A stretch of DNA of 64,000 nucleotides from Alphaproteobacteria bacterium (lineage in GTDB: Bacteria; Pseudomonadota; Alphaproteobacteria; Bin95), in the NCBI GenBank assembly GCA_022825195.1, contig JAJDYL010000103.1:7874-71873 (forward strand). The letters run 5' to 3'. Both the position numbers and the translations under genes were made by a program. The first letter of the stretch is position 1. Each line of letters opens with the position of its first letter. Of this stretch, positions 3,286 to 63,595 are shown piece by piece. Under the pieces are notes generated by a model that saw nothing but the letters and a program-made list of their open reading frames with translations, ran no database searches and was not told where the DNA came from.

Positions 3286-4886
3286 GTACCGATCTCCTTG
3301 GTTACAGGGTCCACCTGGCCGGCAATCCGCATTCCGGACCATCCGCCGATCACCGCCGAGAACAGGCCCGCCGGCCCGCCGGCGCGCGCGATGATGAATG
3401 TGCCTTCGCGGAATTTGTCGATCATTTCATCCTCGCGGCCGGGGTCTATCCCCTCGGCCAGTCCGCCCGCCCCCCGCACGACCTCGCTTCCGGGGCGCTT
3501 GAGGGCAGAGATGAGGGCGTCCTCGATCTCGCTGCGGCCCCAGCCGTCGTCCTTGTAGATTGCATGGTGCTCGGGCGAGAGCACCAGCAGGGCTCCGCCG
3601 AATTCGCAGAGCTTCGGGTGGTTCACGTTCCACAGGTAGCGGACCAGCGAGGCCGTCAGTTCTTCCGCCGTCCGGCTTTTCTGGTCCACGAACCCGCTCA
3701 CCCCTTCGCCGTGGAACAGGGTGACGGCCGATGCGCCCGGCCGGATGCCGCGCGAGACCGAAAGCGGCGTCCAGTCCGGGTCGGTCTCGTCCTCGGCGAA
3801 GCAGAAGGTGTATTTGCCCGGATTGCCCTGCATTGCGCGGTCGATTTCGCCCGGCCGGCCGCCGCCGACATTGCGGATGATGAGCTGGAAGGCCCGGCCG
3901 ATGGTCGCGTTGGCCCGGTTGCCCTGGCCGAGCGCGTTCAGGCCCCAGTTCATGCCGATGCGCCGCGCGACGGGGCCGTTCACGATGATGACCGGCCCGG
4001 CGAAATGGGTCGTGCAGAGCAGGCCGTGCATGGAGAAGCCCGGTATCAGCGCCGCTTCGACCGCCGCGAGAACGGTCGGGAAATATTCGGGCCGGCAGCC
4101 GGCCATCACGGCATTGATGGCCGCCTTCTCCACGGTGCAGGGCGCGAGGTTGGGCGGAATATCCCCGATAATTTCGTCCGCCGCCCGCGTCGTGCCCGCC
4201 AGCATCCGCGCGACGCGCAGGTCGGTCGGCGGCACGATCGGCAGCCCGTCCGTCCAGCCGCGGTCGAAGGCCGTCTCCATCGGGTCGTCATGGTCCTCCA
4301 CGACGATCCGGCGCGCCGAAAGCGGGATGTCGCCGAACCGCACGGCCAGCCTCTCCGGCATCCCGAATTCGACCGACAGAGACCCGCATCCGGGCTGGTT
4401 GTCCGGCAGGCTCTCGCCGAGATCGGCGCGGCCTGTCAGTGCGCGCCACTCGGCCTTGTTCCATCCGATCGCACGTTCGGCTTCGCTGCCGCCGCTGAAG
4501 CGGATCAGCGTCGGCACGGTCTCGATGTCGAGCCGGTAGGAGAGCTCCAGGTCGCCGTCATGCCGGGGGGCCGCACCCTCGGGAAAGGCGGGATCGTCCT
4601 GCGTGACCGCTACGGCGCCCCCCGCCGCCAGTTCCGCAAGGAGCGGCGCAACGAGGACGCAGGTCGGGCAGTCCCGCTTGACCACGGCAAGCAGGCCGTC
4701 GGAAGGAAGGGCGTCGCGCCAGCCGGTCACTCGTCCGTCTCCATGTTCGGTATGCGCAGTCTGCACGGAATCCGCACCGGACTCCAATTTTCGCCGGTCG
4801 CTTTGATAAAGTGTTTGCCAAGTGTATCTGTACACGGTACACCTTGGGGCAAATCCATAATGTCTGGTTGCGTGAAGTTTCGACAC
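3282..4886 (-). CDS. thioredoxin/glutaredoxin-like CxxC domain fused to a large uncharacterised C-terminal domain; true start uncertain
   Basis: …LLAVVKRDCPTCVLVAPLL… is a CPxC redox motif in a beta-strand/helix context. The stop is ATGA-coupled to the UGSC gene. The annotated GTG start lies inside the higB remnant, so the real start is probably further in. Confidence 0.6.
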   Translation of the reverse strand: MSKLHATRHYGFAPRCTVYRYTWQTLYQSDRRKLESGADSVQTAHTEHGDGRVTGWRDALPSDGLLAVVKRDCPTCVLVAPLLAELAAGGAVAVTQDDPAFPEGAAPRHDGDLELSYRLDIETVPTLIRFSGGSEAERAIGWNKAEWRALTGRADLGESLPDNQPGCGSLSVEFGMPERLAVRFGDIPLSARRIVVEDHDDPMETAFDRGWTDGLPIVPPTDLRVARMLAGTTRAADEIIGDIPPNLAPCTVEKAAINAVMAGCRPEYFPTVLAAVEAALIPGFSMHGLLCTTHFAGPVIIVNGPVARRIGMNWGLNALGQGNRANATIGRAFQLIIRNVGGGRPGEIDRAMQGNPGKYTFCFAEDETDPDWTPLSVSRGIRPGASAVTLFHGEGVSGFVDQKSRTAEELTASLVRYLWNVNHPKLCEFGGALLVLSPEHHAIYKDDGWGRSEIEDALISALKRPGSEVVRGAGGLAEGIDPGREDEMIDKFREGTFIIARAGGPAGLFSAVIGGWSGMRIAGQVDPVTKEIGT

Positions 4887-5065
4887 AAAGGGCTACAAGC
4901 GTTCTTCGAGCGGGACGAAGCTCGGCGCCTGCCCGGATACCTCTCCATGCCCTGAAGGGCGACCGGCGGGGCCAGTGGAGCATCCGCGTGTCCGGCAATT
5001 GGCGCGTCACCTGTCGCTTCGTCGAAGGTGGGGCCGTCGATATCGATCCGGTCGACTACCATTAG
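4860..5065 (+). pseudogene. higB: higB (HigB/RelE-type killer protein) remnant, frameshifted and shortened
   Basis: The N-terminal MSGCVKFRHKGLQAFFERDEARRLPGY is in one frame. The C-terminal …LHALKGDRRGQWSIRVSGNWRVTCRFVEGGAVDIDPVDYH is in another frame. Total length is about 206 nt against about 280 nt for intact HigB. Confidence 0.6.
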
Positions 5066-5077
5066 GGAGAGACGCCA

Positions 5078-5350
5078 ATGACCGACGCGATGATGAACCC
5101 GTCCCATCCGGGAGAAACGATCCGTGATTGCATCGAGGAAATGGGTTGGACCGTGACATATGCCGCCGGACAGTTGGGCGTGGCGAGGCATACCCTCTCG
5201 CGCCTGCTCAACGGCCATTCGGGTGTTTCGCCGTCGATGGCGCTGGCGCTGGAGCGGGTCGGCTGGAGCAATGCCGGTTTCTGGATGCGGCGGCAGGCCT
5301 CCTGGGACCTGGCGCAGGCAAGGTTGCGCGAAAGCACCAGAGCCGCGTGA
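5078..5350 (+). CDS. higA: HigA-family antitoxin (XRE HTH)
   Basis: …NPSHPGETIRDCIEEMGWTVTYAAGQLGVARHTLSRLLNGHSGVSPSMALALE… is the classic HigA HTH, 12 nt after the higB remnant. Confidence 0.85.
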   Translation: MTDAMMNPSHPGETIRDCIEEMGWTVTYAAGQLGVARHTLSRLLNGHSGVSPSMALALERVGWSNAGFWMRRQASWDLAQARLRESTRAA

Positions 5351-5432
5351 CAAGCGGAACTTGCTGCGAGCGTCCCAATAGCGAAATTCGGATGATTTCA
5401 GGCCGGACCGAAACCGTCACTCTGCTCGTTGC

Positions 5433-7058
5433 TCACAGTGCCGGCGCGCCTTGCATCGAAACCGTATCCGCCTCCATCGCCTCGGCCATGCGGCGCAGTT
5501 CGGCTTTCTGGATCTTGGTGCCGTTGGCGCTGTAGGTGACGGGGAAGGCGTCTATGGCGGCGGCTCGGACCGGGACCTTGTAGTTGGCCATGGTCTCGCG
5601 GCACCAGGCGAGAAGCGCGGCTTCGTCGTAGAAGGGTTTCCCCGCCGGGCGCACGAAGGCGAAGGCGCGGGGCCCTCGCGGGGTGGCGACGCCGACGACC
5701 TGGCAGCCGGCGACCGAAGGATGGGTCTCGATATGCGCCTCGATCTCGCTCGGGGCCGTAAGGAAGCCGGCGAGTCGCAGCGTGTCGCCCATGCGCGCCT
5801 CATAGATGAAGCTGCCGTCGGCGCGCATCCGCCCGGCATCCCCCGTGCGCAGGAAGCCGTCTTCGGTCATTGCCGCCGCTGTCGCTTCCGGGTTGCTCTC
5901 ATAGCGGAGGAACAGGCTGGGGCAGCGCATTTCGACTTCGCCCGAGACGCCCGGCGGGCAGAGTTCGCCGGTCTCGACATTGCGCACCCGGACGGCGGCT
6001 TCGGGCGCCACCGGATAGCCGCCGCCGGCAAGGCGGTCCTCCAGCGGCGCGTCGATCTTCTGGACGGCCATCAGCGCGCCCACCTCGCTCATGCCGTAAA
6101 GGCCGATCAGCGGCACGCCGCGCGCGAGCGTCCGAGCCGCGAAATCCTCCAGGGTCGGGTTGAACAGGGCGTAGCCGCACAATCTGAGGCTGGGGAAGGG
6201 GATCGGTTCCTCCCGCAGGGCCAGCATGCCGGCATACATGTCGTCCGTGCCCATGAAATGGGTGACCTTGTGGCGGCGCACGGCCTCGGCGGCCTCGCCC
6301 GGCGTGAACAGCGGCGCCAGCACGTTCGGCGCGCCCGCGGCCGCCGTCGCCATCATGGTCGAGAAGCCGAACACCCCGCAAAGCGGCGTCGCCTGGTAGC
6401 TCGCCGCGCCCGCCCGGTCCCAGCCGAAGGCGGCAACGCAGTCGCGGGCATGGCGCGTGACCGGCGCCTGTCCATGCAGCACGAATTTGGGTTTCGAGGT
6501 CGTGCCGGAGGTGGTGAAGACGTTGCAGGGGTCGTCCGGCGTTGCGCGGTCCCCGGCCATCGGGAGCGCCTCGAACAGTGTCCGCACCGCCGTCGCGGGC
6601 TTGCCGGCCACCCGCTCCGGAACCGCAGCCTCGCCCTCGTCGTAGACCAGCACCCGCTCAAGGCCGGACAACGCCTCGTAACCGATCTCCGCCAGCAGGC
6701 CGGCAAAGTCGATATCCTTGAAGCCCGGCCACATGGCGAGCGCCTTCGCGCCCGACCGCGACAGGATGTCCGCGACCTCCAGCGCCCGGAAGCGGGTGTT
6801 GACCGCGACGGCGACTGCGCCGAGGCGTCCGAGCGCGAAGTAGAGCGCGAGCCAGGCCGGCACGTTCGGCAACCAGAGCGCGACCTTGTCGCCGCGCCCG
6901 ATTCCGAGACCCGCCAATGCGGATGCGGCCCGGCGCGACCGGTCGAGCAGGTCGCCGTAGCTCCAGCTCCCGCCGCCATAGAGCAGCGCCGGCGCGTCCC
7001 CGGCTTCCGCGGCGACGCGCTCAAGCAGCGCGGAGAGGGTCTCCCGCTTCCCGGTCAT
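5433..7058 (-). CDS. AMP-dependent synthetase/ligase (acyl-CoA synthetase family)
   Basis: AMP-binding motif TSGTTSKPK and C-terminal lysine region; start overlaps the upstream stop by 4 nt. Confidence 0.9.
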   Translation of the reverse strand: MTGKRETLSALLERVAAEAGDAPALLYGGGSWSYGDLLDRSRRAASALAGLGIGRGDKVALWLPNVPAWLALYFALGRLGAVAVAVNTRFRALEVADILSRSGAKALAMWPGFKDIDFAGLLAEIGYEALSGLERVLVYDEGEAAVPERVAGKPATAVRTLFEALPMAGDRATPDDPCNVFTTSGTTSKPKFVLHGQAPVTRHARDCVAAFGWDRAGAASYQATPLCGVFGFSTMMATAAAGAPNVLAPLFTPGEAAEAVRRHKVTHFMGTDDMYAGMLALREEPIPFPSLRLCGYALFNPTLEDFAARTLARGVPLIGLYGMSEVGALMAVQKIDAPLEDRLAGGGYPVAPEAAVRVRNVETGELCPPGVSGEVEMRCPSLFLRYESNPEATAAAMTEDGFLRTGDAGRMRADGSFIYEARMGDTLRLAGFLTAPSEIEAHIETHPSVAGCQVVGVATPRGPRAFAFVRPAGKPFYDEAALLAWCRETMANYKVPVRAAAIDAFPVTYSANGTKIQKAELRRMAEAMEADTVSMQGAPAL

Positions 7059-22892: not shown

Positions 22893-24103
22893 CGGCGCCT
22901 GTCGACAGCTTCTCCCGCGATGCGCGGGTCATCGGCCTCGTGGCCGCCGGGCACACCATGAGCCACATGTTCGTGTTCATGCTGCTGCCGCTTTCGGTGC
23001 GCATGCAGGACGAGCTGGGATTCAGCTATCTGGAGGTCGGCATCCTGGCGGGCGCCTTCTCGGTCGGCGCGGCGGTCTGCCAGACGGGCGTCGGATTCGT
23101 CGTGGACCGCATCGGCGGGCGGGTGCCGCTCATCATGGGCGTGGCCGTGCTCTCGGCGGCCGTCATGGGGTTCGGGCTGGTCTCCTCCTTCTGGGCCATG
23201 CTGCCGCTCGCGGTCATCGGCGGCGTCGCCAACTCCGTCTTCCACCCCGCCGACTACGCCATCCTCTCGGCTTCCGTCGCCGAGCACCGCATGGGGCGCG
23301 CCTTCTCCATCCATGCCGTCAGCGGCAATACCGGCTGGATCCTCGCGCTGCTGGGCCCCGACCTTGCCGATATCGTCGGCCTGAAGAACGTCTTCCTCGT
23401 GGCGGGCGGCATCGGGGTCGTCGTCTCCTTCGCCCTCCTGCTCCAGTCCCGGCATCTGGAAAGCGCCGAGGGCAGGGCAAGGCGGCGCGAGCAGGGCGGC
23501 TCGACCTCGGACGGGATCGCGCTCCTGCTGACGGTGCCGGTCATCCTGCTGTTCCTGTTCCAGATGTTCCATTCCATGTCGCTCGGCGGCATCCGCACCT
23601 TCGGCATCCCGGCGCTCCACGAATTGCGCGGCTTCGAGGACACGGTGCTGGCGAAGGCGCTGATCGCCTACATGGTGGCGGCCTCGGTCGGCAATCTCGC
23701 GGGCGGCTGGCTGGTGGACCGCACCGGGCGGCCGCAACTCGTGTTCTTCGGCGCCATCGGCACGGTCTTCCTCACGGTCAACATCATCGGCGCGGTTCCG
23801 CTGCCGCTCTACGGCATCGTGGCCCTGCTGCTCGTCGCCGGGGTCATGCACGGCGCGATCATGCCGACCCGGGACCTGCTGGTGCGCCGCATCTCGCCGC
23901 CGGGGCAGATGGGCAAGGTGTTCGGCTTCACCTCCACCGGGCTGTCCATCGGCGGCTTCATGGCGCCGGTCCTGTTCGGCTGGGTGATGGACATGGGCGA
24001 CCCGCGCTGGGTGTTCTTCGGCAGTGCGGCCGTCATGCTGCTCGCCGTCGCCACCTTCGTCGAAACCAGCCGCAATGCGGGCAGGGCAAGGGCAACGGCA
24101 TGA
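22889..24103 (+). CDS. MFS transporter
   Basis: 12-TM hydropathy pattern and MFS motifs; 4-nt overlap. Confidence 0.9.
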   Translation: MTAPVDSFSRDARVIGLVAAGHTMSHMFVFMLLPLSVRMQDELGFSYLEVGILAGAFSVGAAVCQTGVGFVVDRIGGRVPLIMGVAVLSAAVMGFGLVSSFWAMLPLAVIGGVANSVFHPADYAILSASVAEHRMGRAFSIHAVSGNTGWILALLGPDLADIVGLKNVFLVAGGIGVVVSFALLLQSRHLESAEGRARRREQGGSTSDGIALLLTVPVILLFLFQMFHSMSLGGIRTFGIPALHELRGFEDTVLAKALIAYMVAASVGNLAGGWLVDRTGRPQLVFFGAIGTVFLTVNIIGAVPLPLYGIVALLLVAGVMHGAIMPTRDLLVRRISPPGQMGKVFGFTSTGLSIGGFMAPVLFGWVMDMGDPRWVFFGSAAVMLLAVATFVETSRNAGRARATA

Positions 24104-24987
24104 AACAGCTTCCGACAGGCGACGAACTTTTCCTCGACCATGTGGGCTATTTCCTCGCCGACCTCGACGGGGCGGCGGCGCGGTTCGAACGGCTGGGCTT
24201 CACCGTGTCGCCCGTCAACATCCACTACAACAGCGCCGGCGGCGAACTCGTGCGGTCGGGCACGGCCAACCGCCTGATCACCTTCGAGGCGGGCTATATC
24301 GAGGCGCTGGGCCAGGTCGCGGACACGCCGCTCGGCGCGGAACTCGCCGCCGGCCTCGCGCGCTATGAGGGGCTGCACCTGCTCGCGCTCGCGCACGGGC
24401 GGGTCGAGGCGCACGATGTGGGCGGCACGGACATGCGCCCGACGGTCTTCCTGCGCCGCCCGCTGGAGGACGGGCGCATCGTGCGCGCGACCGTGCGCCG
24501 GGCGACGGCGGGGGCGATGCCGGAAGGCCGGGTGCAGCTGCTCACCCACGAGACGCCGGAGCTGATCTGGCTGCCGGGCATGGACCGCCACGCCAACGCC
24601 GCCCGCGCGCTTACCGGCTTCCTGCAGACCGTCGCCGACCCCGAAGAGGCGGCGGCGCGCTACGCCCGGTTCGCCAACCGCCCCGCGCGCAGGCTCGGCT
24701 CCGTCTTCGAGATCGCGCTGGACCGGGGCCGCTTTGCGCTTGCCGGGCCGGACGCGCTCGCCGCGCTGTTGCCTGCCGGAGAGCACCCGCCGCCGCCCTT
24801 CGGCGCCGCCGTCGGCATCGAAAGCGCCGACCTCGACCGCACGCGCTTCCTTCTTGCGAACGCCGGCATTACCGTCCACGCGCGGCCGGACCGCCTGCTG
24901 GTCCCGCCGCCGGAGGGACTGGGCGCCTGGATAGACTTCCACCGCCCCGACGCCCCGCCGCTCTGGGCCGCAGGGCCGGATTTGTAA
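24100..24987 (+). CDS. VOC (glyoxalase/bleomycin-resistance/dioxygenase) family protein
   Basis: …LFLDHVGYFLADLDGAAARFERLGF…; 4-nt overlap with the MFS gene. Confidence 0.7.
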   Translation: MKQLPTGDELFLDHVGYFLADLDGAAARFERLGFTVSPVNIHYNSAGGELVRSGTANRLITFEAGYIEALGQVADTPLGAELAAGLARYEGLHLLALAHGRVEAHDVGGTDMRPTVFLRRPLEDGRIVRATVRRATAGAMPEGRVQLLTHETPELIWLPGMDRHANAARALTGFLQTVADPEEAAARYARFANRPARRLGSVFEIALDRGRFALAGPDALAALLPAGEHPPPPFGAAVGIESADLDRTRFLLANAGITVHARPDRLLVPPPEGLGAWIDFHRPDAPPLWAAGPDL

Positions 24988-25130
24988 TACCGGCGGTACG
25001 GGGTTGCGACCCATAGGAGATGGCGCTCCACCGTCGCCCCGGCAGCCTCGGGTATCGGAGATGGGCCCCCGCTTTCGCGGGCGCGACGAAAAGCGGGCGG
25101 TAGTCGGGGGACCGGCGGAAGCGTCAGGAT

Positions 25131-25590
25131 ATGTCATGTTTTGTCATGAGGCCGGTCTGTGCCCGGCCGTTTGCTCCGGGCCGGCAGTCGCTCGCAAAGG
25201 CATTGCGGCTTCCTTTCCGTCCATGGTCCTCGGACGCCCGGTTGCCGGAGGAGCGTTCCCCTCCCGCGCATAATGCGCGCGCGCGTTTCGCGGCGGCGCG
25301 CGTGTGCGCCCGCGCGTGCGGGACGGCGGGGCCGTCCTCTCCATTGTGGATGTCATGAGATGTCATGTTTTGTCATGAGGCCGGTCTCCGTCCCGGCCGC
25401 TTGCGCCGGTCCGGCGGTCGTTCGCAGGGCATCGCGGCCTCCTTGTCGGTCCATGATCCCGGACGCCCGGTTGCCGGAGGCGCGTCCCCCTCCTGCGCAT
25501 AATGCGCGCGCGCGTTCGCGGCGGCGCGCGCGCGCCCGCGTGCGCGAGGCGGCGGGCGGGCCATTCCCCTCGACAAGCTCATGACAGGTT
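25131..25590. repeat. imperfect tandem duplication of a ~229-bp GC-rich structured unit; five forward and one inverted copy of TGTCATG(AG)
   Basis: Unit 1 starts at 25131 and unit 2 at 25360, both with ATGTCATGTTTTGTCATGAGGCCGG. Unit 2 is preceded by a third decamer (25351). The far end at 25578-25586 is CTCATGACA, the inverse of TGTCATGAG. Confidence 0.85.
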
Positions 25591-26085
25591 CTTTTGTCGC
25601 TCCGGCCCCCGAGCCGGGGTCCAGTCTCGGTCCTCGCGGCAGCCCCGGATACCCGGAACAAGTCCGGGCACGGTCCGGGGCAGGCCCCGGCAGTTGAGCC
25701 AGCTCTCCACCGGCTGCGGCATCATCGAGAGCCATGCATGGACCCCGGCTCGGAGGCCGGGGTGACAGTCGGGGGGCATGCGACGCGAAGCCAACGCCGG
25801 AGATGTGTGCATCGGGTAGCGGTTGGGGGCGGGGATCGTTCACGGTCATTCGTGCCTCCTCCCTGGGGACCATGGGCGGGACGGGGTGTCCCTGTTTCGC
25901 GCGTTATCGTGCGCCGGTGCGTGCGTGGGCGCGGGCGGGCGTATCGCGGCGGCGCGGTTCACGCGCGTGATTGCCCGCGCGCACGGGCGCGCGGCGGCAG
26001 GCCGGCCGGAGGGCGCACCCCTCCCGCCTGCTCACGCCGGGGGTTTTGCGGCCCCCAGCCATTGCTTTCTGCAGAAAAGCGGAAC

Positions 26086-26112
26086 GGCGGCCCCGGAAGC
26101 CGCCTTTCTCTC
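26086..26112 (+). terminator. GC hairpin GGCGGC-cccggaa-GCCGCC followed by TTTCTCTC
   Basis: Read directly; the T-rich tail is only moderate. Confidence 0.4.
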
Positions 26113-26332
26113 ATGCCTATTCTACACCATTCCTCGGAAAGTCAAGCCATTTGGGAACAAAAAATGAAAAACCGGACAACTTTCTCACAACCCGTTGAAC
26201 CGGCAGGACAATATCGGTGTTGCCGGATTGGGACCCATGAGGAACAGCGCTCCACCGCCGCCCCGGCCCCGGCCTTTGCGGAGGCAGCGAAGGGGCGGCC
26301 CCGTCATCGGTTCCGGTCGATGCCCGCTGGTA

Positions 26333-26956
26333 TCAGACCTCCTGCGCCTTGAGGCCGCGCTGCACGGCGGGCCGCGCGGTCATGATGTCGAACCAGCGCT
26401 TCACATTGGGGAAGCGGTCGAAGTCGAGGTCGATCCACTCATGGCGGCAGGCCCAGGGATAGACGGCGATATCCGCGATCGAATAGTCGTCGCAGAGGAA
26501 GTCCCGCCCCTCCAGCCGCCGGTCCATGACGCCGTAGAGCCGGTAGGTCTCCTGGGTGTAGCGCTCGATGCCGTAGGGCACCTCCACCTTGGCGGCGCGG
26601 CGGAAATGGTGCGCCTGGCCCTGCATCGGCCCGACGCCGCCCATCTGCCACATCAGCCATTGCAGCACCTCGAGGCGCCGTCGCGGCTCCGTCGGCCAGA
26701 GGGGGCTGCCGGTCTTCTCGGCGAGATAGATCAGGATGGCGCCGCTCTCGAACAGCGAGACCGGCCCGCCGCCGGGGCCGTCGGGGTCGACGATGGCCGG
26801 GATGCGGTTGTTGGGGCTGATCTTCAGGAAGTCGGGATGGAACTGCTCGTCCTTGCCGATATTGACCGGGTGCCACTGGTATTCCAGCCCCAGCTCCTCC
26901 AGCATGATCGAAATCTTGCGCCCGTTGGACGTGTTCCAGCTATGGAGATGAATCAT
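26333..26956 (-). CDS. glutathione S-transferase, YfcG/Nu-class-like
   Basis: Close to E. coli YfcG throughout (…ISPNNRIPAIVDP…SLFESGAILIYLAEKTG…IERY…ETYRLY…). Confidence 0.9.
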   Translation of the reverse strand: MIHLHSWNTSNGRKISIMLEELGLEYQWHPVNIGKDEQFHPDFLKISPNNRIPAIVDPDGPGGGPVSLFESGAILIYLAEKTGSPLWPTEPRRRLEVLQWLMWQMGGVGPMQGQAHHFRRAAKVEVPYGIERYTQETYRLYGVMDRRLEGRDFLCDDYSIADIAVYPWACRHEWIDLDFDRFPNVKRWFDIMTARPAVQRGLKAQEV

Positions 26957-34360: not shown

Positions 34361-34538
34361 GGGTTCGCTTCCGTTTCGGTCCCGCCCAGCAAAGCCCATT
34401 CGCGCTCCGCGCTCAAGCGCGGCCTTCAGGCGTTCCCGCAGGAAAGGAGACATTCGCAAATTGCGTCGCGCACCGTCCGGGACGACGGCGAGGCCATGCC
34501 GGATCGGGGAGGGGGCCGGCGGCGGGAAGACGCGCCGT

Positions 34539-34871
34539 TCAGCCCACGGGGCAGAAATCGTAGGTGCCGATACCCTGCACGATCAGGAAGCGGGCGCGGG
34601 CGCCGTCCTTTCCGGTGACGCGGTGCGCGGTCATTCTCGGCACCGCGCAGCTCTCGCCGACCTCCAGCAGGTAACGCGCCCTCGGCGCGCGGGTTTCCAC
34701 CGAGAGCGTGCCTTCGAGGCAGTAGAAGGTGTCCTCGATCTCGCTGTGATAGTGCCAGGGCACTTCCTGCCCTTCCGCGAGCGTCAGGATGCCGACCCGC
34801 AGCGTGTCGGTTTCGGCCACCGTCTCGCGGCGCTCGATGACATAGGGCCGTGCGTCGGGGTCTGTCATAGT
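34539..34871 (-). CDS. cupin domain protein
   Basis: …WHYHSEIEDTFYCLEGTLSVE…; trimmed to MTDPDARPYV…. Confidence 0.7.
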   Translation of the reverse strand, partial: TMTDPDARPYVIERRETVAETDTLRVGILTLAEGQEVPWHYHSEIEDTFYCLEGTLSVETRAPRARYLLEVGESCAVPRMTAHRVTGKDGARARFLIVQGIGTYDFCPVG

Positions 34872-34982
34872 CGGGTCGCTCTCCGTGCGCGACACGGCGC
34901 AACCGGTAACGTCTCTGTTGCGACAAGTCGTAAGTGCCGCCTCCAAACCCGTCAAGGCGGACTTCGTTCCCCGGGACTGCCG

Positions 34983-35423
34983 TTACGCACCGCTCGCCGA
35001 AATATCGGCGAGATGCAGGGTACGGTCCGCAAGGTAAGGATGGGCGCGCACCTTGTCGTGGAAACGCGCGTCGGCGGTCACGACCGGATATTGCGTATGG
35101 ATCGCGAGCGCGAGGTAGAAGCAGTCGTAAACCGGATGGTCCAGATCGCTCGCCAGCCGCGTTGCCGCCGCCATGAGGTCCGGCATCGACAGGGGCGTCG
35201 AAACCGGAGCTACCCGCAAGGTCTCCACCGCCTCTGCGAGGTCGGAGGCCGCAATATCGCCGCGCCGACGCATGGCCCAGAGCGCATTGGCAGCCTCGGC
35301 GAACAGGAGCGGCGGCGCGGCAAGCGTCGAGTCGCCGTCCAGCAGGGCAGCCGCCTTGTCCGAAAGAACTTCCTCGACCAGCCATTTCACCGCGACGCTG
35401 GCATCGACGACATAGCCGGTCAC
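34983..35423 (-). CDS. vapC: type II TA toxin, VapC family (PIN domain)
   Basis: MTGYVVDASVAVKWL… PIN acidic-residue pattern; ATGA-overlapped by the upstream antitoxin. Confidence 0.85.
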   Translation of the reverse strand: MTGYVVDASVAVKWLVEEVLSDKAAALLDGDSTLAAPPLLFAEAANALWAMRRRGDIAASDLAEAVETLRVAPVSTPLSMPDLMAAATRLASDLDHPVYDCFYLALAIHTQYPVVTADARFHDKVRAHPYLADRTLHLADISASGA

Positions 35424-35656
35424 GCCATGCTTTCCCGGTCCCGGTCCGCTCGTATCGTAGCAGTGCTATCGACCGAGGAGCGAAGCCGCCGCCGCAACGC
35501 AGCTGCGCGTGCGGCAAACTCTTCTTCCGTTCCCAGCAACGTTTCCCGCAGGATGGCCCGATGCTCGGCTTCAGCGGACCGTCCATTGGACGCTGCGCGC
35601 TGCTTCAGCGCGCCGACGACCTCCTCGCTCAGCTTTCTTACGGTGAGTTGGGCCAT
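35420..35656 (-). CDS. vapB: VapB/FitA-like ribbon-helix-helix antitoxin
   Basis: MAQLTVRKLSEEVVGALKQRAASNGRSAEAEHRAILRETL. Confidence 0.75.
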   Translation of the reverse strand: MAQLTVRKLSEEVVGALKQRAASNGRSAEAEHRAILRETLLGTEEEFAARAAALRRRLRSSVDSTATIRADRDRESMA

Positions 35657-35816
35657 CCGGAATGTCTTCTTTGCTGCGTCTGCAATGACAGCATATATAG
35701 CCAGCTTGCCTTTGCCGGGCAATCCTGCCGGCCCCCGCCATTGCGCAGCGCGGGCTTCGCTCCTAGATAGGGTCGGGCCGCTGGCGGGAGCGGCATTCGG
35801 AGGTCGCGGGCAGGCC

Positions 35817-36656
35817 ATGGGTATTCCGTTCGTCAAGATGCACGGGCTCGGCAACGATTTCGTCGTGCTGGATGCGCGCGCCCGGCCGCTCGACTGGTCC
35901 GAGGCGGGCTACCGCCGCGTGGCGGACCGGCGCACCGGCATCGGCTGCGACCAGTTCATGGTGCTGCGCCCGCCGGCCGGCGGCGGCGACGTGTTCATGG
36001 AAATCCGCAATGCCGACGGCGGCGAGGTCGAGGCCTGCGGCAACGGCACGCGCTGCGTGGCGGCGCTCCTGTTCGACGAGCGGGGCCGGGACGAGGCCGC
36101 GGTCGAGACCGTCGCGGGAACGCTCCGGGCGGCGCGCGCACCGGCGGGGCTGGTGCGCGTGGACATGGGACCGGCGCGGCTCGCCTGGGACGAGATTCCC
36201 TTGGCCGGCCCGGCGGACACGCTTTGCCTCGACCTCGCCCGGGGCCCGCTGGCGGGACCGGTGGCGACCAATGTCGGCAATCCGCACGCCACCTTCTTCG
36301 TGGAGGACGCCGAAGCGGTGGACCTGGAGCGCTGGGGCCCCGAGATCGAGCATGACGCCCTCTTCCCGGAGCGCGCCAATGTCGGCGTGGTCCGCATGGA
36401 GGGACGGGAGGCGATGCGGCTCCGCGTCTGGGAGCGCGGCGTCGGCATCACCCGCGCCTGTGGCACCGGAGCCTGCGCGGCAACCGCCGCCGCCGTGCGC
36501 CGGGGCCTCGGCGAGCGCCGGATCGAAGTGCGGCTCGACGGCGGGGCGCTCGAAATCGAGTGGCGCGAGGGCAACGGCCACCTGCTGATGACCGGGCCGG
36601 CCGCGGTGAGCTTCCGCGGCGAGCTCGAGGCGCATGTGCCGGAGGCGGGGCCGTGA
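35817..36656 (+). CDS. dapF: diaminopimelate epimerase
   Basis: …FVKMHGLGNDFVVLD…CGNGTRC…ACGTGACA…. Confidence 0.9.
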   Translation: MGIPFVKMHGLGNDFVVLDARARPLDWSEAGYRRVADRRTGIGCDQFMVLRPPAGGGDVFMEIRNADGGEVEACGNGTRCVAALLFDERGRDEAAVETVAGTLRAARAPAGLVRVDMGPARLAWDEIPLAGPADTLCLDLARGPLAGPVATNVGNPHATFFVEDAEAVDLERWGPEIEHDALFPERANVGVVRMEGREAMRLRVWERGVGITRACGTGACAATAAAVRRGLGERRIEVRLDGGALEIEWREGNGHLLMTGPAAVSFRGELEAHVPEAGP

Positions 36657-37897
36657 CCGCAGAAATCGTCACCTTCGGCTGCCGCCTCAACGCCTGGGAA
36701 TCCGAGGCCATGCGCCGGCTGACGGCCGAGGCCGGTCTCGGCGAGGCCGTCGTCTTCAACACCTGCGCGGTCACGGCCGAGGCCGAGCGGCAGGCGCGGC
36801 AGGCGATCCGCAGGGCCCGGCGCGAACGGCCCGGCGCCGAAATCGTGGTGACCGGCTGCGCCGCGCAGATCGCGCCCGGGCGCTGGCTCGCCATGGAAGA
36901 GGTGGACCGGGTCGTCGGCAATGCCGAGAAGCTGACTGCCGAGGCCTGGAAGCCGGACGCGCCCGCGGCGCTGGTGGACGACATCATGAGCGTGCGCGAG
37001 ACGGCGGCGCATCTGCTCGACGGCTTCGGTGGCCGGGCGCGGGCCTTCGTGCAGGTGCAGCAGGGCTGCGACCACCGCTGCACCTTCTGCATCATCCCCT
37101 ACGGGCGCGGCCCCGGCCGCAGCGTGCCGCTCGGCGGCGTCGCGGCGCAGGTCCGCCGGCTGCTGGAGGCGGGCGCTGCCGAAATCGTGCTGACCGGGGT
37201 GGACATCGCCTCCTGGGGCGCGGACCTGCCGGGCGCGCCGCGGCTGGGGCAGCTTGTCCGCCGCCTGCTGGCGCAGGTGCCGGAGCTTCGCCGGCTCAGG
37301 CTCTCCTCCGTCGATCCCGCCGCCGTGGACGATGAGCTCTTCCGGTTGCTGGCGGAGGAACCCCGGCTGATGCCGCATCTGCACCTCTCCGTGCAGGCGG
37401 GCGACGACATGGTGCTGAAGCGGATGAAGCGCCGGCACAGCGCGGCCGATATCGTCTCGCTTTGCGAAAGGCTCAGGGCGCTGCGCCCGGAAATCGCCTT
37501 CGGGGCGGACCTGATCGCCGGCTTCCCGACCGAAACGGAAGCGATGTTCGCCCGCAGCCTCGAACTGGTGGAGGCCTGCCCGCTCACCTGGCTGCATGTC
37601 TTTCCCTATTCGCCGCGCCGGGGCACGCCGGCGGCGCGGATGCCGCAGGTGGCGGCGCCGGTGCGCAGGGAACGCGCGCGCCGGCTCAGGGCGGCGGGCG
37701 GGGCGGCAGCCGCGCGCTTCCTCGAAGGCCGGGTCGGCCTGACGGAGCGCGTTGCGGTCGAGCGCGAGGGCGTCGGACGCACCGAGCAGTTCGCGCCGGC
37801 CCGCCTGGTAGGCCCGGCCCGGCCCGGTTCGGTGCGGCGCGCGCGTGTGTGCCGGGTCGAGGAGGAACGGCTCGTCGCGGAGGTCCTCGCGGCGTGA
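36653..37897 (+). CDS. mtaB: tRNA methylthiotransferase MtaB (MiaB-like radical SAM)
   Basis: UPF0004 N-domain cysteines and the radical-SAM motif QGCDHRCTFCIIP; GTG start in a GTGA overlap with dapF. Confidence 0.85.
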   Translation: MTAEIVTFGCRLNAWESEAMRRLTAEAGLGEAVVFNTCAVTAEAERQARQAIRRARRERPGAEIVVTGCAAQIAPGRWLAMEEVDRVVGNAEKLTAEAWKPDAPAALVDDIMSVRETAAHLLDGFGGRARAFVQVQQGCDHRCTFCIIPYGRGPGRSVPLGGVAAQVRRLLEAGAAEIVLTGVDIASWGADLPGAPRLGQLVRRLLAQVPELRRLRLSSVDPAAVDDELFRLLAEEPRLMPHLHLSVQAGDDMVLKRMKRRHSAADIVSLCERLRALRPEIAFGADLIAGFPTETEAMFARSLELVEACPLTWLHVFPYSPRRGTPAARMPQVAAPVRRERARRLRAAGGAAAARFLEGRVGLTERVAVEREGVGRTEQFAPARLVGPARPGSVRRARVCRVEEERLVAEVLAA

Positions 37898-38808
37898 GTT
37901 GGCTTCAGCGGCTGAGACGGGGGCTGTCGCGATCTTCCGACCGCCTCGCCGACGGGATTGCGGGCATCTTCAACCGGCGCCGGCTGGACGATGAGGCGCT
38001 GGAGGAACTGGAAGACCTGCTCATCATGGCCGATCTGGGGCCGGCCACCGCCGCACGGCTCGCCGCCGGCCTCGGGCGCACGCGCTTCGGCAAGGAGGTT
38101 TCCGGCGAGGAAGTGCGCGGCGTGCTGGCCGAGGAGATCGCCGGCCTGCTGGAGCCGGTAGCGCGCCCGCTCGTCGCCGATCCGGCGCGCAAGCCGCATG
38201 TCATCCTGGTCGTGGGCGTGAACGGCACCGGCAAGACGACGACGATCGGCAAGCTGGCGCACGCCTTCCGCGCCGGGGGAAAGACCGTGCTGCTGGCGGC
38301 GGGCGACACCTTCCGCGCGGCGGCGGTCGAGCAGCTGCAGCTATGGGGGGAGCGGGTCGGCGCGCCGGTCGTGGCGCGGCCGGCGGGGGCGGACGCCGCG
38401 GGCCTCGTCTTCGACGCTCACGCGCAGGCGATCGGCGAGGGCATCGACATCCTGCTGATCGACACCGCCGGGCGGCTGCACAACAAGGCCAATCTGATGG
38501 ACGAGTTGCGCAAGATTACCCGCGTGATCGCCAAGCAGGACGCGGATGCGCCGCACGACACCGTGCTCACCCTCGACGCCACCACCGGGCAGAACGCGTT
38601 GCAACAGGTCCGTGCCTTCCGGGACATGGCGGAGGTGACGGGCCTGATCGTGACCAAGCTCGACGGCTCGGCGAGAGGAGGCGTCGTCGTGGCGCTCGCG
38701 GAGAGTGTCGGCCTGCCGGTCCACGCCGTCGGCGTCGGCGAAGGCGAGGAAGACCTCCGCCCCTTCGCCCCCCGGGACTTCGCCCGCAGCCTGATGGGGC
38801 TGGAGTGA
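37894..38808 (+). CDS. ftsY: signal recognition particle receptor FtsY (short form)
   Basis: …VGVNGTGKTTTIGKLA…DTAGRLHN…; GTG start in a GTGA overlap with mtaB. Confidence 0.9.
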   Translation: MSWLQRLRRGLSRSSDRLADGIAGIFNRRRLDDEALEELEDLLIMADLGPATAARLAAGLGRTRFGKEVSGEEVRGVLAEEIAGLLEPVARPLVADPARKPHVILVVGVNGTGKTTTIGKLAHAFRAGGKTVLLAAGDTFRAAAVEQLQLWGERVGAPVVARPAGADAAGLVFDAHAQAIGEGIDILLIDTAGRLHNKANLMDELRKITRVIAKQDADAPHDTVLTLDATTGQNALQQVRAFRDMAEVTGLIVTKLDGSARGGVVVALAESVGLPVHAVGVGEGEEDLRPFAPRDFARSLMGLE

Positions 38809-38878
38809 GGGGGCGGGGCGACCGGTTGCGACAGTCCGTTTCGTCTGGCGCGACGGGATCGAAGGAGAGGTAAGCGAT

Positions 38879-39229
38879 ATGACCGTCCGGCGCGAAGACC
38901 TGGAGCGCGGCGCGGTGCAGTTTTCGGAAGTCGTCACCGGCGGCCGGCTGGCGCCGGTGCATCCCGGCGAAGTACTGCGCGATGAGTTCCTGGCGCCGAT
39001 GGACCTCAGCGTCTATGCGCTGGCCAAAGCGCTGAAGGTTTCAAGGGCGCGTCTAAACGACGTTGTGCGCGGCCGGCGGGCCGTCACAACCGATACTGCG
39101 CTGCGGCTGGGGCGCTATTTCGGCACCACACCGGATTTCTGGATCAATCTTCAGGTCCGATACGAATTGGACGCCTCCGATGCCCTTCGCGCGCGGATCG
39201 AAAAGGAGATCGCGCCCCGCGCAGCGTAA
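38879..39229 (+). CDS. HigA-family XRE HTH protein with no adjacent toxin gene
   Basis: …VHPGEVLRDEFLAPMDLSVYALAKALKVSRARLNDVVRGRRAVTTDTALRLGRYFGTTPDFWINLQ…; GGAGAGG RBS. Confidence 0.7.
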   Translation: MTVRREDLERGAVQFSEVVTGGRLAPVHPGEVLRDEFLAPMDLSVYALAKALKVSRARLNDVVRGRRAVTTDTALRLGRYFGTTPDFWINLQVRYELDASDALRARIEKEIAPRAA

Positions 39230-39247
39230 GGCCCATCCTTGCGGGCG

Positions 39248-39967
39248 CTATTCACCTCCTTCCCGCCCTCCGGAAGCCAACCGGGCGATGACGCCGCGGA
39301 GCGTGCGGACTTCCTGGTCGGTGAGGCCGGCGCGGGCGAAGACGGCGCGGAGATTGCGCTGGACGGTAGGCTTGAGCTTCGGTTCGCGGTAGTAACCCGC
39401 GGCTTCCAGCGCGCCGTCGAGATGCTGCCAGAAGCCCTCGAAGGCTTCCGCCGAGGCGCGCGCGCTGGTGGGCGGCGGCTCGGGCGGCGGGCCGGCCATG
39501 CGCCATTCCCAGGCCATCAGGAACACGGCCTGGGCGAGATTGAGCGAGGGGAATTCCGGGTTGAGCGGCGCCTCGACGATGGCGGCGGCCAGGCCCGCCT
39601 CGTCATTGTCGAGGCCGCTGCGCTCCGGGCCGAACAATATGCCCGTCCGCGCGCCGGAATCGCGCAACAGCCGCGCCGCCTCGCGGGGACCGTGGACGGG
39701 CTTCTCGACATCGCGCCGCCGCGCCGTCGTGGCCAGAACGAGCTGCAGGTCGGCGACGGCCTCGGCCGCCGTGTCGAAGAGGCGCGCCTTGTCGATCACG
39801 GCATCGGCGCCGGCCGCGGCCGCGCGGGCCGCCGGGTTCGGCCAGCCGTCGCGCGGGGCCGCGATACGGAGTTCGTCCAGCCCGCAATTCATCATCGCGC
39901 GCGCCGCCATGCCGATATTCTCGCCCAATTGCGGGCGCACCAGCACGATGGCGGGCGGGCGGCTCAC
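39248..39967 (-). CDS. SpoU/TrmH-family RNA 2'-O-methyltransferase (TrmJ-like)
   Basis: …IVLVRPQLGENIGMAARAMMNCGLDELRIAAP…. Confidence 0.8.
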   Translation of the reverse strand: MSRPPAIVLVRPQLGENIGMAARAMMNCGLDELRIAAPRDGWPNPAARAAAAGADAVIDKARLFDTAAEAVADLQLVLATTARRRDVEKPVHGPREAARLLRDSGARTGILFGPERSGLDNDEAGLAAAIVEAPLNPEFPSLNLAQAVFLMAWEWRMAGPPPEPPPTSARASAEAFEGFWQHLDGALEAAGYYREPKLKPTVQRNLRAVFARAGLTDQEVRTLRGVIARLASGGREGGE

Positions 39968-41550
39968 CGTTCGGCGGTGAGCAGCTTGTAGGTCAGGCTG
40001 TCGTTCAACGCCTCGTAGGAGGCATTGATGATGTTCTCCGAAACGCCGACCGTGGTCCAGCGGGCGCCCGTCTCGTCGGCGCTCTCGATCAGCACCCGCG
40101 TGACCGCCGCCGTGCCGTCGCCCGGTGTCAGGATGCGCACCCGGTAGTCGGTGAGGCGCACGCCCTCGAGGCAGGCATAGGCCGGCAGCAGCGCCTGGCG
40201 GAGCGCGGCATCGAGCGCATTCACCGGGCCGTTGCCCTCCGCCACCTCCATGGACCGGCGTCCGTCGACGGTGAGCTTGACCACGGCTTCCGACACGGTG
40301 ACCAGTTCGCGCCTGGCGTTCAGGCGCCGCTCGTCGGTGACGCGGAAGCTCTCCAGCGACCAGTAGTCGGGCACGGTCTGGAGCATCCGGTGGGCCAGAA
40401 GCTCGAAGCTCGCCAGCGCGCCGTCATAGGCGTAGCCCTCGAACTCGCGCTCCTTCACGAGATCGACAAGCCGGGCGACGCGCGGGTCGTCCCGGTCCAC
40501 ATCGAGGCCGATCTCCCGGAACCGCGCGAGGATATTGGCGCGGCCCGACTGGTCCGAGACCAGGATCTGGCGCTTGTTGCCGACCGTCTCCGGCGCAATG
40601 TGCTCGTAGAAGCCGGGATCCTTCTCCACGGCCGAGACGTGCAGGCCCGCCTTGTGCGCGAAGGCCGACGCCCCGACATAGGGCGCGTGACGGTTGGACG
40701 GACGGTTGAGCCGCTCGTCGAACGCCCGCGAGACCTGTGTGAGGCGCTCCAGCCCTTCGGCCGGAACCCCGGTCTCGAAGCCCATCTTGCGCGTGAGCGT
40801 CGGCAGCAGCGCCACCAGATCGGCATTGCCGCACCGCTCTCCCAGGCCGTTCAGGGTGCCCTGAACCTGCCTCGCCCCGGCGCGCACCGCCGCCAGCGTG
40901 TTGGCGACGGCATTGCCGGTGTCGTTGTGCGTGTGGATGCCGAGGCGGGCGCCCGGAACGGACCCGGCCGCCGCGGCGACGGCGGCCTCGATCTCGTGGG
41001 GAAGCGTGCCGCCGTTGGTGTCGCAGAGCACGACCCAGCGCGCACCGGCCTCCAGCGCCGTTTCCAGCACCTTGAGCGCATAGTCCGGACGGGCCTTGTA
41101 GCCGTCGAAGAAATGCTCGGCGTCGAACAGCGCTTCCTTGCCGCGCCCCACGATCTCGGCGATGGAATCGCGGATCATCGCCAGGTTCTCGTCGAGCGAA
41201 ACCCCGAGCGCCGACTCGGCATGGCGGGCATCGGCCTTGCCGACCAGGCAGATGGCGTCGACCTTCGAGCGGAGCGTGACCGCGAGCCCCGGGTCGTTCG
41301 CCGCCGACCGGCCGGCCCGGCGCGTCATGCCGAAGGCCGTGAGGCGGGCGCGGGAGAGCGCCGGCGGGTCGGCGAAGAAGCCGTCATCGGTCGGGTTGGC
41401 GCCGGGCCAGCCGCCCTCCACATAGTCGATGCCGAGCGCATCGAGATCGCGCGCGATGGCGGCCTTGTCGGCAATATTGAAATCGACGCCCTGGGTCTGG
41501 GCGCCGTCGCGGAGCGTCGTGTCGAAGAGGTAGAGGCGGTTGTCGTTCAT
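39964..41550 (-). CDS. cimA: citramalate synthase (LeuA-like)
   Basis: MNDNRLYLFDTTLRDGAQTQGVDF… HMGL-like barrel plus a LeuA-dimer C-terminal region. Confidence 0.85.
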   Translation of the reverse strand: MNDNRLYLFDTTLRDGAQTQGVDFNIADKAAIARDLDALGIDYVEGGWPGANPTDDGFFADPPALSRARLTAFGMTRRAGRSAANDPGLAVTLRSKVDAICLVGKADARHAESALGVSLDENLAMIRDSIAEIVGRGKEALFDAEHFFDGYKARPDYALKVLETALEAGARWVVLCDTNGGTLPHEIEAAVAAAAGSVPGARLGIHTHNDTGNAVANTLAAVRAGARQVQGTLNGLGERCGNADLVALLPTLTRKMGFETGVPAEGLERLTQVSRAFDERLNRPSNRHAPYVGASAFAHKAGLHVSAVEKDPGFYEHIAPETVGNKRQILVSDQSGRANILARFREIGLDVDRDDPRVARLVDLVKEREFEGYAYDGALASFELLAHRMLQTVPDYWSLESFRVTDERRLNARRELVTVSEAVVKLTVDGRRSMEVAEGNGPVNALDAALRQALLPAYACLEGVRLTDYRVRILTPGDGTAAVTRVLIESADETGARWTTVGVSENIINASYEALNDSLTYKLLTAER

Positions 41551-46727: not shown

Positions 46728-46803
46728 GCCGCGCTAGCTCAGTCGGTAGAGCAGCCGATTTGTAATCGGCAGGTCGGGGGTTCGAGACCCTCGCGCGGCA
46801 CCA
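46728..46803 (+). tRNA. tRNA-Thr (anticodon TGT)
   Basis: Cloverleaf read by eye. Acceptor GCCGCGC/GCGCGGC; D-arm GCTC-AGTCGGTA-GAGC; anticodon stem GCCGA/TCGGC with loop TTTGTAA; T-arm GGGGG-TTCGAGA-CCCTC; CCA encoded. Confidence 0.85.
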
Positions 46804-62449: not shown

Positions 62450-62562
62450 TCCGGCGCGCGCGTCCGAGAAACTGTTTTGTTCGCATATATGGATATAATT
62501 ATCCGCAAGGGGCTTGCATTCTAGGAAATTATGCTACAATAGCTCCCAGGGCAGCGGTGTCC
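62450..62562 (+). promoter_or_regulatory. AT-rich promoter-like region (TTGCAT…CTACAAT; TATAAT-containing stretch) upstream of the terminase-like gene
   Basis: Read directly from …catatatggatataattatccgcaaggggcTTGCATtctaggaaattatgCTACAATagc…. Confidence 0.45.
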
Positions 62563-63480: not shown

Positions 63481-63595
63481 CATTTCCGGGAGGGTCCCCG
63501 CTCCCCGTTCGCGGGGCCGGCGGCCGTGCCCGGCAAACGGAAAAAGGGCCGGCTTGGGAGCCGGCCCTTTCCCTGTCCTTGCGCCCGGAGGCGGG

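Follow-up and report, generated by a model that had tools for sequence, protein, structure and literature searches.

The described systems closest to the locus reported here are the short intergenic repeats exemplified by the Correia elements (CREE) of Neisseria and other miniature inverted-repeat transposable elements (MITEs), the repetitive extragenic palindromic (REP) sequences, the TerS-pac modules of phages and their satellites (TerS, small terminase; pac, packaging site), and the insertion sequences (IS) of the IS110 family. The pac sites of phages P1 and SPP1 contain clustered short repeats similar to the heptad arrays described below, and IS110 elements have a structured 5′ non-coding RNA and are without inverted repeats. 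We here compare with these systems a locus in a window of 64,000 nucleotides (nt), that is, the whole stretch analyzed, from contig JAJDYL010000103.1 of an Alphaproteobacteria bacterium (assembly GCA_022825195.1; source scaffold ENA ERZ23491646 KELL22-1 scaffold_420; 69% GC). The locus, hereafter called the island, is the interval 24988–26332 between a VOC gene and a GST gene. The island is quite likely to be a mosaic, confined to this strain, of decayed lineage-specific repeats at a rearrangement junction, and to hold no dedicated gene or site; its main component is, judged by its sequence, a degenerate minus-strand member of an apparently undescribed multi-copy cassette family.

The two genes enclosing the island are as follows.

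24100–24987, plus strand: VOC gene (Glyoxalase_3), with Pfam support and very strong third-position GC
26333–26956, minus strand: GST gene, with Pfam support and very strong third-position GC

These genes are convergent, with 1345 bp between them. The frame-specific GC periodicity (maximum minus minimum) drops from 0.3–0.54 in VOC and GST to 0.0–0.26 over 24940–26350, and a scan of the whole window gave 24988–26332 as its longest periodicity-free run (about 1.3 kb, against about 490 nt for the next longest), consisting of two low-periodicity runs with cores of about 750 and 470 nt parted by weak periodicity near 25700–25880. The size of the gap and the loss of codon periodicity thus bear out the preliminary description of this DNA, which had reported a non-coding island between convergent genes.

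Essentially all 1345 bp could be assigned to repeat families, and every segment belongs to a family that occurs at non-syntenic sites in related genomes, in agreement with the earlier view that the island is built from repeats. In the RNA sense, a cassette of the main family is arranged in the order of an AT-rich left end, (A)ATATTCACTTTTTGTTTCG or TTTTCATTTTTTGTTCCC, a sigma-70-like promoter, a 5′ stem-loop, a leader of about 250 nt, a Shine-Dalgarno (SD) sequence with ATG, a variable interval, CATGACA heptads, and a right end (CATGACAy-N-GGGGTsyCCC, with a terminal GGGGTCCCC-like motif). Each heptad array comprises two to four CATGACA copies that recur every 10 bp, and there are often two clusters, 20–40 bp apart. 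The parts of the island, including its open reading frames (ORFs), are listed below; loci from other genomes are designated by L numbers.

24985–25104, plus strand: short repeat, copy 1, beginning at the VOC stop (TAA-TACCGGCGG) and including the 58-nt direct repeat 24986–25043
within 24985–25104, plus strand: hairpin CCCGCTTT...AAAGCGGG of short repeat copy 1
25105–25351, minus strand: 5′-truncated cassette copy 1, with the 3′ half of the leader, SD AAGGAAG, a 19-codon ORF, heptads and the terminal motif
25203 to 25144, minus strand: 19-codon ORF MPLRATAGPEQTAGHRPAS and its stop, with the ATG at 25203 preceded by AAGGAAG
25148 to 25122, minus strand: CATGACA heptads of truncated copy 1
about 25105–25113, minus strand: cassette terminal motif GGTCCCCC, matching the right-end consensus CATGACAy..GGGGTsyCCC
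25352–25590, minus strand: 5′-truncated cassette copy 2, with leader profile positions 104–219, SD AAGGAGG, a 19-codon ORF and heptads
25432 to 25373, minus strand: 19-codon ORF MPCERPPDRRKRPGRRPAS and its stop, with the ATG at 25432 preceded by AAGGAGG
25377 to 25351, minus strand: three CATGACA heptads of truncated copy 2 (TRF: period 10, 3.1 copies)
25595–25769, no strand assigned: palindromic MITE, about 135 nt long, with 42-nt arms and the ends CGTCGCTCCGG..CCGGGGTGACA
about 25643–25693, no strand assigned: nested 51-nt insertion in the MITE, containing the REP-like hairpin CCGGAACAAGTCCGG
25822–25864, minus strand: SD GGGAGGAGG (25864 to 25856), a 6-nt gap, ATG at 25849 and about nine cargo codons
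25850–26112, minus strand: conserved GC-rich leader, full-length at about 250 nt, with the core ..GGTGCG..CGCGCGGGCAATCACGCGCG..GATAACGCGCGAAACAGGGAC
26086–26104, minus strand: 5′ stem-loop GGCGGC-UUCCGGG-GCCGCC, starting about 8 nt downstream of the predicted transcription start site
26119–26145, minus strand: promoter-like −35 TTGACT (26145 to 26140), 15-nt spacer and −10 TAGAAT (26124 to 26119)
26146–26196, minus strand: AT-rich cassette left end (..GTTTTTCATTTTTTGTTCCC..); the similarity to L090 and L107 stops near 26196
26210–26335, plus strand: short repeat, copy 2, whose right end GGTTCCGGTCGATGCCCGCTGGTATCA provides the GST TGA stop; L114 diverges exactly there

The assignment of the main component rests first on the leader, for which a profile built from the family matched 26159–25886 over its positions 2–231 (E=2e-45). 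The region 25822–26204 is 71–85% identical to more than 25 of the loci found by the heptad scan described below; other loci show matches to the tandem units and to the inverted-repeat segment. The tandem repeat and the further degenerate copy noticed previously are both real: the former is a 229-bp duplication (25123–25351 and 25352–25580, 81–94% identical) composed of the two 5′-truncated cassette copies, each with about leader positions 104–219, an SD and a 19-codon ORF (profile match of copy 2, 25596–25494, E=7.4e-9), and the latter lies at 25860–26100. GC hairpins are also present, including a bidirectional terminator-like hairpin at 26086–26104, and the A-rich tract exists, not as a separate feature but as the AT-rich left end and promoter region of the repeat element. 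The heptad pattern TGTCATG (CATGACA) has six matches in the window against 0.10 expected. The cargo-remnant codons (MTVNDPRPQ...) match the N-terminus of a 192-aa protein of L068 (MTVNEPRPE...), and the remnant is not regarded as a live gene because GC3 in its frame is only about 0.6.

The remaining parts are also repetitive. Short repeat copy 1 gave nhmmer matches to 26210–26267 and to L053 (86% over 51 nt), and a 58-nt direct repeat (24986–25043 and 26210–26267, 76% identical) flanks the island. The inverted repeat inside it (arms 25595–25636 and 25726–25767, 79% complementary) is that of the palindromic MITE, for which nhmmer found 19 matches on both strands in L038, L015, L053, L078, L001, L090, L048 and L061. 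The 51-nt insertion is missing from most of these matches, and the core of its REP-like hairpin has 14 matches in seven loci. Searches of the island against plasmids and phages by blastn gave no match, and a TerS pseudogene sought in it by tblastn gave noise only.

Comparison with close relatives defined the position of the island. No exact record of the VOC or GST protein was found, and homologues were used; four relative loci were obtained through VOC homologues (80–95% protein identity), and all four keep the upstream order of a histidine phosphatase, two CoA-transferases and an MFS transporter, together with a hydrolase in three of the four. At 80–92% nt identity, their homology to the window ends at 24968–24979, which is at the VOC stop or short of it by a few bases, and beyond VOC they carry three different gene sets; the VOC of the window is four residues longer than in relatives. 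On the other side, the GST gene of L114 is 95.6% identical to that of the window at the nt level and homology is lost exactly at the GST stop, which in L114 is a TAG overlapping an AMP-binding gene and in the window is a TGA supplied by the first bases of the short repeat. Because the relatives lose homology at the VOC and GST stops, the island is, by this comparison, strain-specific and sits at a genome-rearrangement junction. The question raised previously, whether the island is mobile or conserved, has therefore been answered as mobile-like and strain-specific, and the idea of a partition/origin-like site is unsupported, as the island is absent from the closest relatives and all of its segments are dispersed repeat families. 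In L002/L003 (7468–12876), VOC is followed by genes for a large fatty-acid-desaturase-domain protein and a YcaO-domain protein that are absent from the window and may form a cluster of the type producing ribosomally synthesized and post-translationally modified peptides (RiPP-like).

The short repeat at the two ends of the island, T[GA]ATACC..CGG..GACCGGAACC, abuts or provides the stop codons of unrelated genes (VOC, TauD, GST and one more) through its ends T[GA]ATACC.. and ..GGTATCA. Its sites are 24985–24987 and 26333–26335 in the window, 6874–6900 and 8931–8966 in L001 (VOC and TauD), and near 1900 in L107. The possibility that it is an abundant MITE was set aside, with just two or three extra matches in the fetched loci. 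Repeats of this kind, overlapping or providing stops as in the case of the GST gene (TGA, against TAG in its close relative), matter for gene-end calls.

The cassette family was delimited by scanning one genome per species for CATGACAWNWCATGACAT, which returned at least 109 stretches. Among the matches listed, most are from related 65–72% GC metagenome-assembled genomes labelled Alphaproteobacteria or Rhodospirillaceae bacterium, several of which are named after sponges, and those in other taxa are single and at chance expectation. Each related genome has at least 3–5 heptad loci, often with two arrays a locus. An iterated nhmmer profile of the leader recovered, at convergence, 47 copies distributed over 41 loci; in every case the leader precedes the heptads and shares their strand. 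The family thus shows the many dispersed copies at non-orthologous sites that characterize a MITE or non-autonomous transposon. The first lead to the gene of intact cassettes was a short L001 match, which pointed to another heptad array of the window, its third, situated at 63456–63482 and overlapping the stop codon of a solitary Terminase_2-domain ORF. The cassette to which this array belongs has the following parts.

62480–63505, plus strand: ORF-bearing cassette, in the stretch 62450–63595, between dioxygenase and MoCoBD genes
62500–62640, plus strand: partial leader; the promoter of this cassette is TTGCAT-16-TACAAT
62563–63480, plus strand: TerS-like ORF (PF03592, E=5.8e-11; PHROG 51)
63456–63482, plus strand: three CATGAC heptads, overlapping the stop of the TerS-like ORF

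Intact cassettes are about 1.3 kb long and have a solitary TerS-like gene with its stop codon inside the heptad array; the linkage of the heptads to the TerS-like gene is a plain feature of the family. The copy in the window differs from the family in a 43-column internal deletion and a non-canonical N-terminus, and the protein of L038 also matches PF03592 (E=2.8e-13). We found 338 homologues at E<=1e-5, of which the top 120 are 59–100% identical. The gene is multi-copy: five large contigs each carry three distinct 90% clusters, three of these contigs also carry heptad loci, and several other contigs carry two clusters. In L197 and L198, which were picked by protein homology only, the full leader lies just upstream (E=1.8e-47 and 1.1e-45) and three to four heptads lie over the stop codon. 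Alignment of 50 members revealed that the N-terminal 165 residues are almost invariant, that the C-terminal motif DWLYQRRNGY..YDPWAPEE is conserved, and that nearly all proteins terminate in ..HD[IKR][STAP], encoded by the first heptad. The AlphaFold (AF2) model is all-helical, with a mean pLDDT of 67 (88–91 for the N-terminal domain) and no recognisable catalytic fold. Foldseek aligned the N-terminal domain with the DNA-binding domain of SF6 G1P (4zc3, 2cmp; TM 0.80–0.84, rmsd 1.4–1.7 A, 40% identity), and an N-terminal TerS-type helix-turn-helix (HTH) DNA-binding domain, as in phage TerS proteins, was accordingly recognized by Pfam, PHROG and Foldseek.

Next to five TerS-like loci we saw no large terminase or other phage gene, and the neighbours are metabolic. 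The viral contigs of IMG/VR yielded no close TerS relative (generic matches of 34% identity), no leader, and single heptads at chance level. Nothing relevant to the heptad or to orphan multi-copy small terminases came up in literature searches. The possibility that the inverted heptad arrays at 25.1 and 63.5 kb of the window delimit a 38-kb element was also considered and rejected, because the intervening genes are ordinary metabolic ones and each array has its own small cassette. Elsewhere in the window, a tRNA-Thr(TGT) gene (46728–46803) lies between genes for an AraC/DJ-1-type regulator and an ATP-sulfurylase/APS-kinase, with no integrase seen adjacent.

The conserved signals of the cassette were examined across the copies. 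The promoter (−35 TTGAC[AT], −10 TAnnAT) is recognisable in most of 29 copies, with a spacing of 15–16 nt in 26 of the 29 and a spacer of varying sequence; a general promoter scan missed that of the island because the scan demanded a 16–18-nt spacer. In the 5′ stem-loop, six of seven pairs have changes on both sides and 92% of the cells are paired, against 31–66% in slid controls, and none of 500 shuffles matched the observed score. A hairpin around AATCAG has one compensatory pair, and no other helix of the leader stands out, though the leader core is almost invariant, including in gene-less copies. A long-range helix between GGGACACCCC of the leader and GGGGTGTCCC of the right end was rejected; it has no covariation and the GGGWCCC motif is self-complementary. 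No terminator was found at the end of the cassette unit.

Most cassette copies are gene-less and 210–460 nt long, and others carry one of several cargo genes between the same leader and heptads, i.e. a TerS-like gene (the window, L038, L016, L025), an isochorismatase gene (L012) or the gene for the 192-aa protein (L068, L090). The cargo of L012 (3500–4300) encodes an isochorismatase-family hydrolase (PF00857, E=2e-25), and that of L068 (3640–4240) and L090 (1200–1600) encodes a conserved protein that Pfam did not match and PHROG matched only weakly. Most copies are found downstream of a gene or in the gap between two convergent ones; the neighbour on the upstream side is co-oriented in 16 cases and opposed in 4. 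In L087, which is 89–94% identical to window 34532–40188, a cassette occupies 5253–5955, 9 nt past a stop, and the window has none at about 34532; this alignment indicates that the difference is a presence/absence polymorphism of the family, and as an empty site it defines the right-end junction only, since on the left the contig ends within the flank, which has no significant similarity there. Foreign IS elements are nested in or abut several cassettes, namely an IS4-like element (DDE_Tnp_1) with the terminal inverted repeat AGCCCGACTTCCGCAACTCGG at L018 1958–3972, two different IS110-family elements at L018 4071–5230 and L006 5675–6685, and an IS3-family element at L031 about 4640–4900. The cassettes thus look like preferred or tolerated IS landing sites, and in favouring gene 3′ ends and convergent intervals and serving as IS landing pads, their copies behave like tolerated selfish DNA.

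The following history would account for the island. In the minus-strand layout, one degenerate cassette would have had its cargo gene cut to about nine codons and replaced by the palindromic MITE; two 5′-truncated repeats come next, and two copies of the short repeat enclose the whole, abutting the VOC and GST stops. Such repeats may have produced the VOC–GST junction itself, either by inserting there or by recombining with one another. The island promoter probably makes a non-coding transcript, which, if the retained promoter still fires, would extend into the 3′ end of VOC in antisense orientation. That the heptads are phased at exactly 10 bp suggests recognition as duplex DNA, and they are probably binding sites for a TerS-like protein; at the island, intact paralogues, including one at a distance of 37 kb in the window, would provide such a protein in trans.

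Several points weigh against regarding the island as mere debris of mobile repeats. The promoter, stem-loop and leader core are kept even in gene-less copies, beyond the expectation for pure junk, and the RNA or DNA of the cassette may therefore have a function, possibly at the island too. The left and right cassette ends show no inverted similarity that would make terminal inverted repeats, there is no consistent flanking direct repeat indicating a target-site duplication (the boundaries have an uncertainty of about ±10 nt, and the empty site available is incomplete), and no recombinase or transposase of the family's own was found, so that mobility is judged from distribution. Nor was an autonomous transposase partner with the same ends found: the longer partner encodes the TerS-like protein, and the only transposases are those of foreign nested IS elements. 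Most loci were found via the heptad motif, which biases both the copy numbers and the leader–heptad association, with L197 and L198 as the sole independent check. We infer from sequence the transcription, the TerS–heptad binding and the repeat-mediated rearrangement.

Other explanations have to be weighed with these points in mind. A missed protein gene, whether the plus-strand ORF of 252 aa (25594–26352), the minus-strand ORF of 166 aa (25373–25873) or the 19-codon ORFs, is very improbable. The preliminary description was mistaken in finding no ribosome-binding site, as the minus strand has three strong SD+ATG signals, which open only the remnant or the 19-codon ORFs, and short ORFs with the end ..HD[IK][ST] recur across many cassette copies; this common C-terminus is, however, imposed by the DNA heptads, and the island ORFs are Arg/Pro-rich and vary in length and sequence from copy to copy. 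Moreover, GC3 is 0.6–0.84 in all island frames without the order GC3>GC1>GC2, against at least 0.9 in the flanking genes, and the long ORFs run across the palindromic MITE. A coding reading of the 25595–25769 segment, based on synonymous-looking substitutions relative to L001, was dropped in view of the two-strand palindromic MITE matches and low GC3. A functional RNA, in which the promoter-driven leader of about 250 nt and perhaps the two partial repeats act as trans-acting small RNAs or sequester a protein through CAUGACA motifs, is distinctly unlikely as an account of the island. The conserved hexamers around a variable spacer, the compensatory changes in the stem-loop, the near-invariant leader core even where no gene follows, and the full-length leader retained in the island all speak for it, but just one helix has real covariation and the rest of the leader is a CG-repeat with many pairing registers. 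In addition, no terminator closes the unit, the leader of intact copies is the 5′ untranslated region of the gene, the heptad phasing fits duplex DNA better, and the island is missing from close relatives. No Rfam covariance model matched the island or a canonical cassette copy at E<=1, so that the covariance-model search recommended earlier was negative; of the earlier proposal of non-coding RNA, a conserved promoter and a 5′ stem-loop with compensatory changes survive, and a dedicated, conserved RNA locus does not.

The heptads may instead be a cis-acting DNA site bound by the TerS-like protein, either a pac-like packaging start, from which a helper phage or gene transfer agent (GTA) would transduce neighbouring DNA, or a nucleoprotein assembly site; for the island we judge this, too, decidedly unlikely. 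Heptads invariably overlie the 3′ end of the TerS-like gene, whose N-terminal domain matches the pac-binding domain of SF6/SPP1 G1P, and two to four copies per array lie on one helical face, often in two clusters 20–40 bp apart. Against this stand the five TerS-like loci without an adjacent large terminase or phage gene, the absence of the family from IMG/VR (only generic TerS matches, chance-level heptads and no leader), the status of heptad binding as a prediction, and the fact that the island arrays are decayed copies. The cis-acting array proposed previously holds insofar as phased short direct repeats resemble a protein-binding site, but not as a dedicated regulatory array for the position of the island. 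That the arrays are operators of a transcription factor acting on the flanking genes, for example Pho boxes for PhoB, is extremely improbable: the E. coli Pho-box half-site is CTGTCAT, which the TGTCAT direct repeats resemble, but the 10-bp period (not 11) and the 3′-end context lead us to reject it, as both neighbours converge with their 3′ ends on the arrays, which are not upstream of regulated promoters, and the arrays occur at more than 70 unrelated loci, always tied to the leader or the TerS-like gene and not to particular neighbours. An equally remote explanation, which we reject, is that the unit is an IS110-family insertion sequence with its miniatures, the leader being a bridge RNA. 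L018 has an IS110-type recombinase (PF01548 and PF02371) between leader and heptads, and L006 has one, 41% identical, upstream of heptads; however, 80 relatives of the recombinase (62–77% identity) are without leader and without heptads, and nt homology to them is confined to L018 4071–5230, which marks the IS110 element as a foreign insertion nested in a cassette. Intact cassettes carry TerS-like genes and no DEDD recombinase between their own ends, and an IS4-like element is nested in the same L018 copy. We keep to the mosaic of decayed repeats as the explanation of the island.

For the window, the consequence is deflationary: the gap is repeat debris, to be annotated as repeat or mobile-element remnants. 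The wider significance lies in the apparently undescribed family, in which a solitary TerS-like gene is combined with a promoter, leader and heptads in several diverged copies per genome, with dozens of miniatures. If the TerS-like protein binds the heptads, the cassettes would be candidates for a minimal satellite or transduction-promoting module or for a new mobility mechanism, and would also mark genome plasticity in a clade that is rich in symbionts and little studied. A broader proposal, which we consider rather unlikely, is that undescribed chromosomal 'terS-like mini-cassettes', multi-copy and with gene-less and cargo-swapped derivatives, constitute in these uncultured, partly sponge-associated Alphaproteobacteria a packaging-initiation module or a TerS/RNA-based mobile element. 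If true, they would be minimal modules that spread the DNA next to them by hijacking the capsids of phages or GTAs, or a new type of mobile element using a TerS-like protein and its RNA in place of a classical transposase.

Returning to the known systems, the cassette shares with IS110 elements and their bridge RNA a 5′ non-coding region, here starting with a stem-loop, the lack of inverted repeats and insertion near repeats, whereas a DEDD recombinase is no part of the cassette unit. The 25595–25769 element and its nested hairpin resemble REP sequences, bacterial interspersed mosaic elements (BIMEs) and REPIN-like MITEs in being GC-rich, matching on two strands and occurring in many copies at gene ends, and the stop-abutting repeat is of the same general kind; the sequences are, however, unrelated to the enterobacterial and Pseudomonas families, and the main cassette is not palindromic. 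Like the Correia elements and MITEs, the cassettes are lineage-specific, multi-copy, gene-less intergenic units of 0.2–0.5 kb that bear promoters, favour gene 3′ ends, nest with other repeats and IS elements, and seem to have arisen by internal deletion from a longer, gene-bearing unit. Unlike them, they have neither terminal inverted repeats nor a detectable target duplication, their two ends differ (AT-rich with a promoter on one side, heptads with GGGGTCCCC on the other), and their longer partner encodes a TerS-like DNA-binding protein and no transposase. In comparison with the TerS-pac modules of pac phages and satellites, such as SPP1/SF6 G1P with its pac site, P1 PacA with its clusters of pac hexamers and the terS genes of Staphylococcus aureus pathogenicity islands (SaPI) and phage-inducible chromosomal islands (PICI), the cassette gene is solitary, with no terL or capsid genes near, and multi-copy per chromosome; its protein has a 150-aa acidic extension with the DWLYQRRNGY..YDPWAPEE motif; and the unit has its own conserved 250-nt leader and was not found in viral contigs (IMG/VR). 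The likeness to these modules lies in the N-terminal HTH with the SF6 G1P fold, in the long helical segment that follows it, and in the phased repeats in or next to the terS-like gene.

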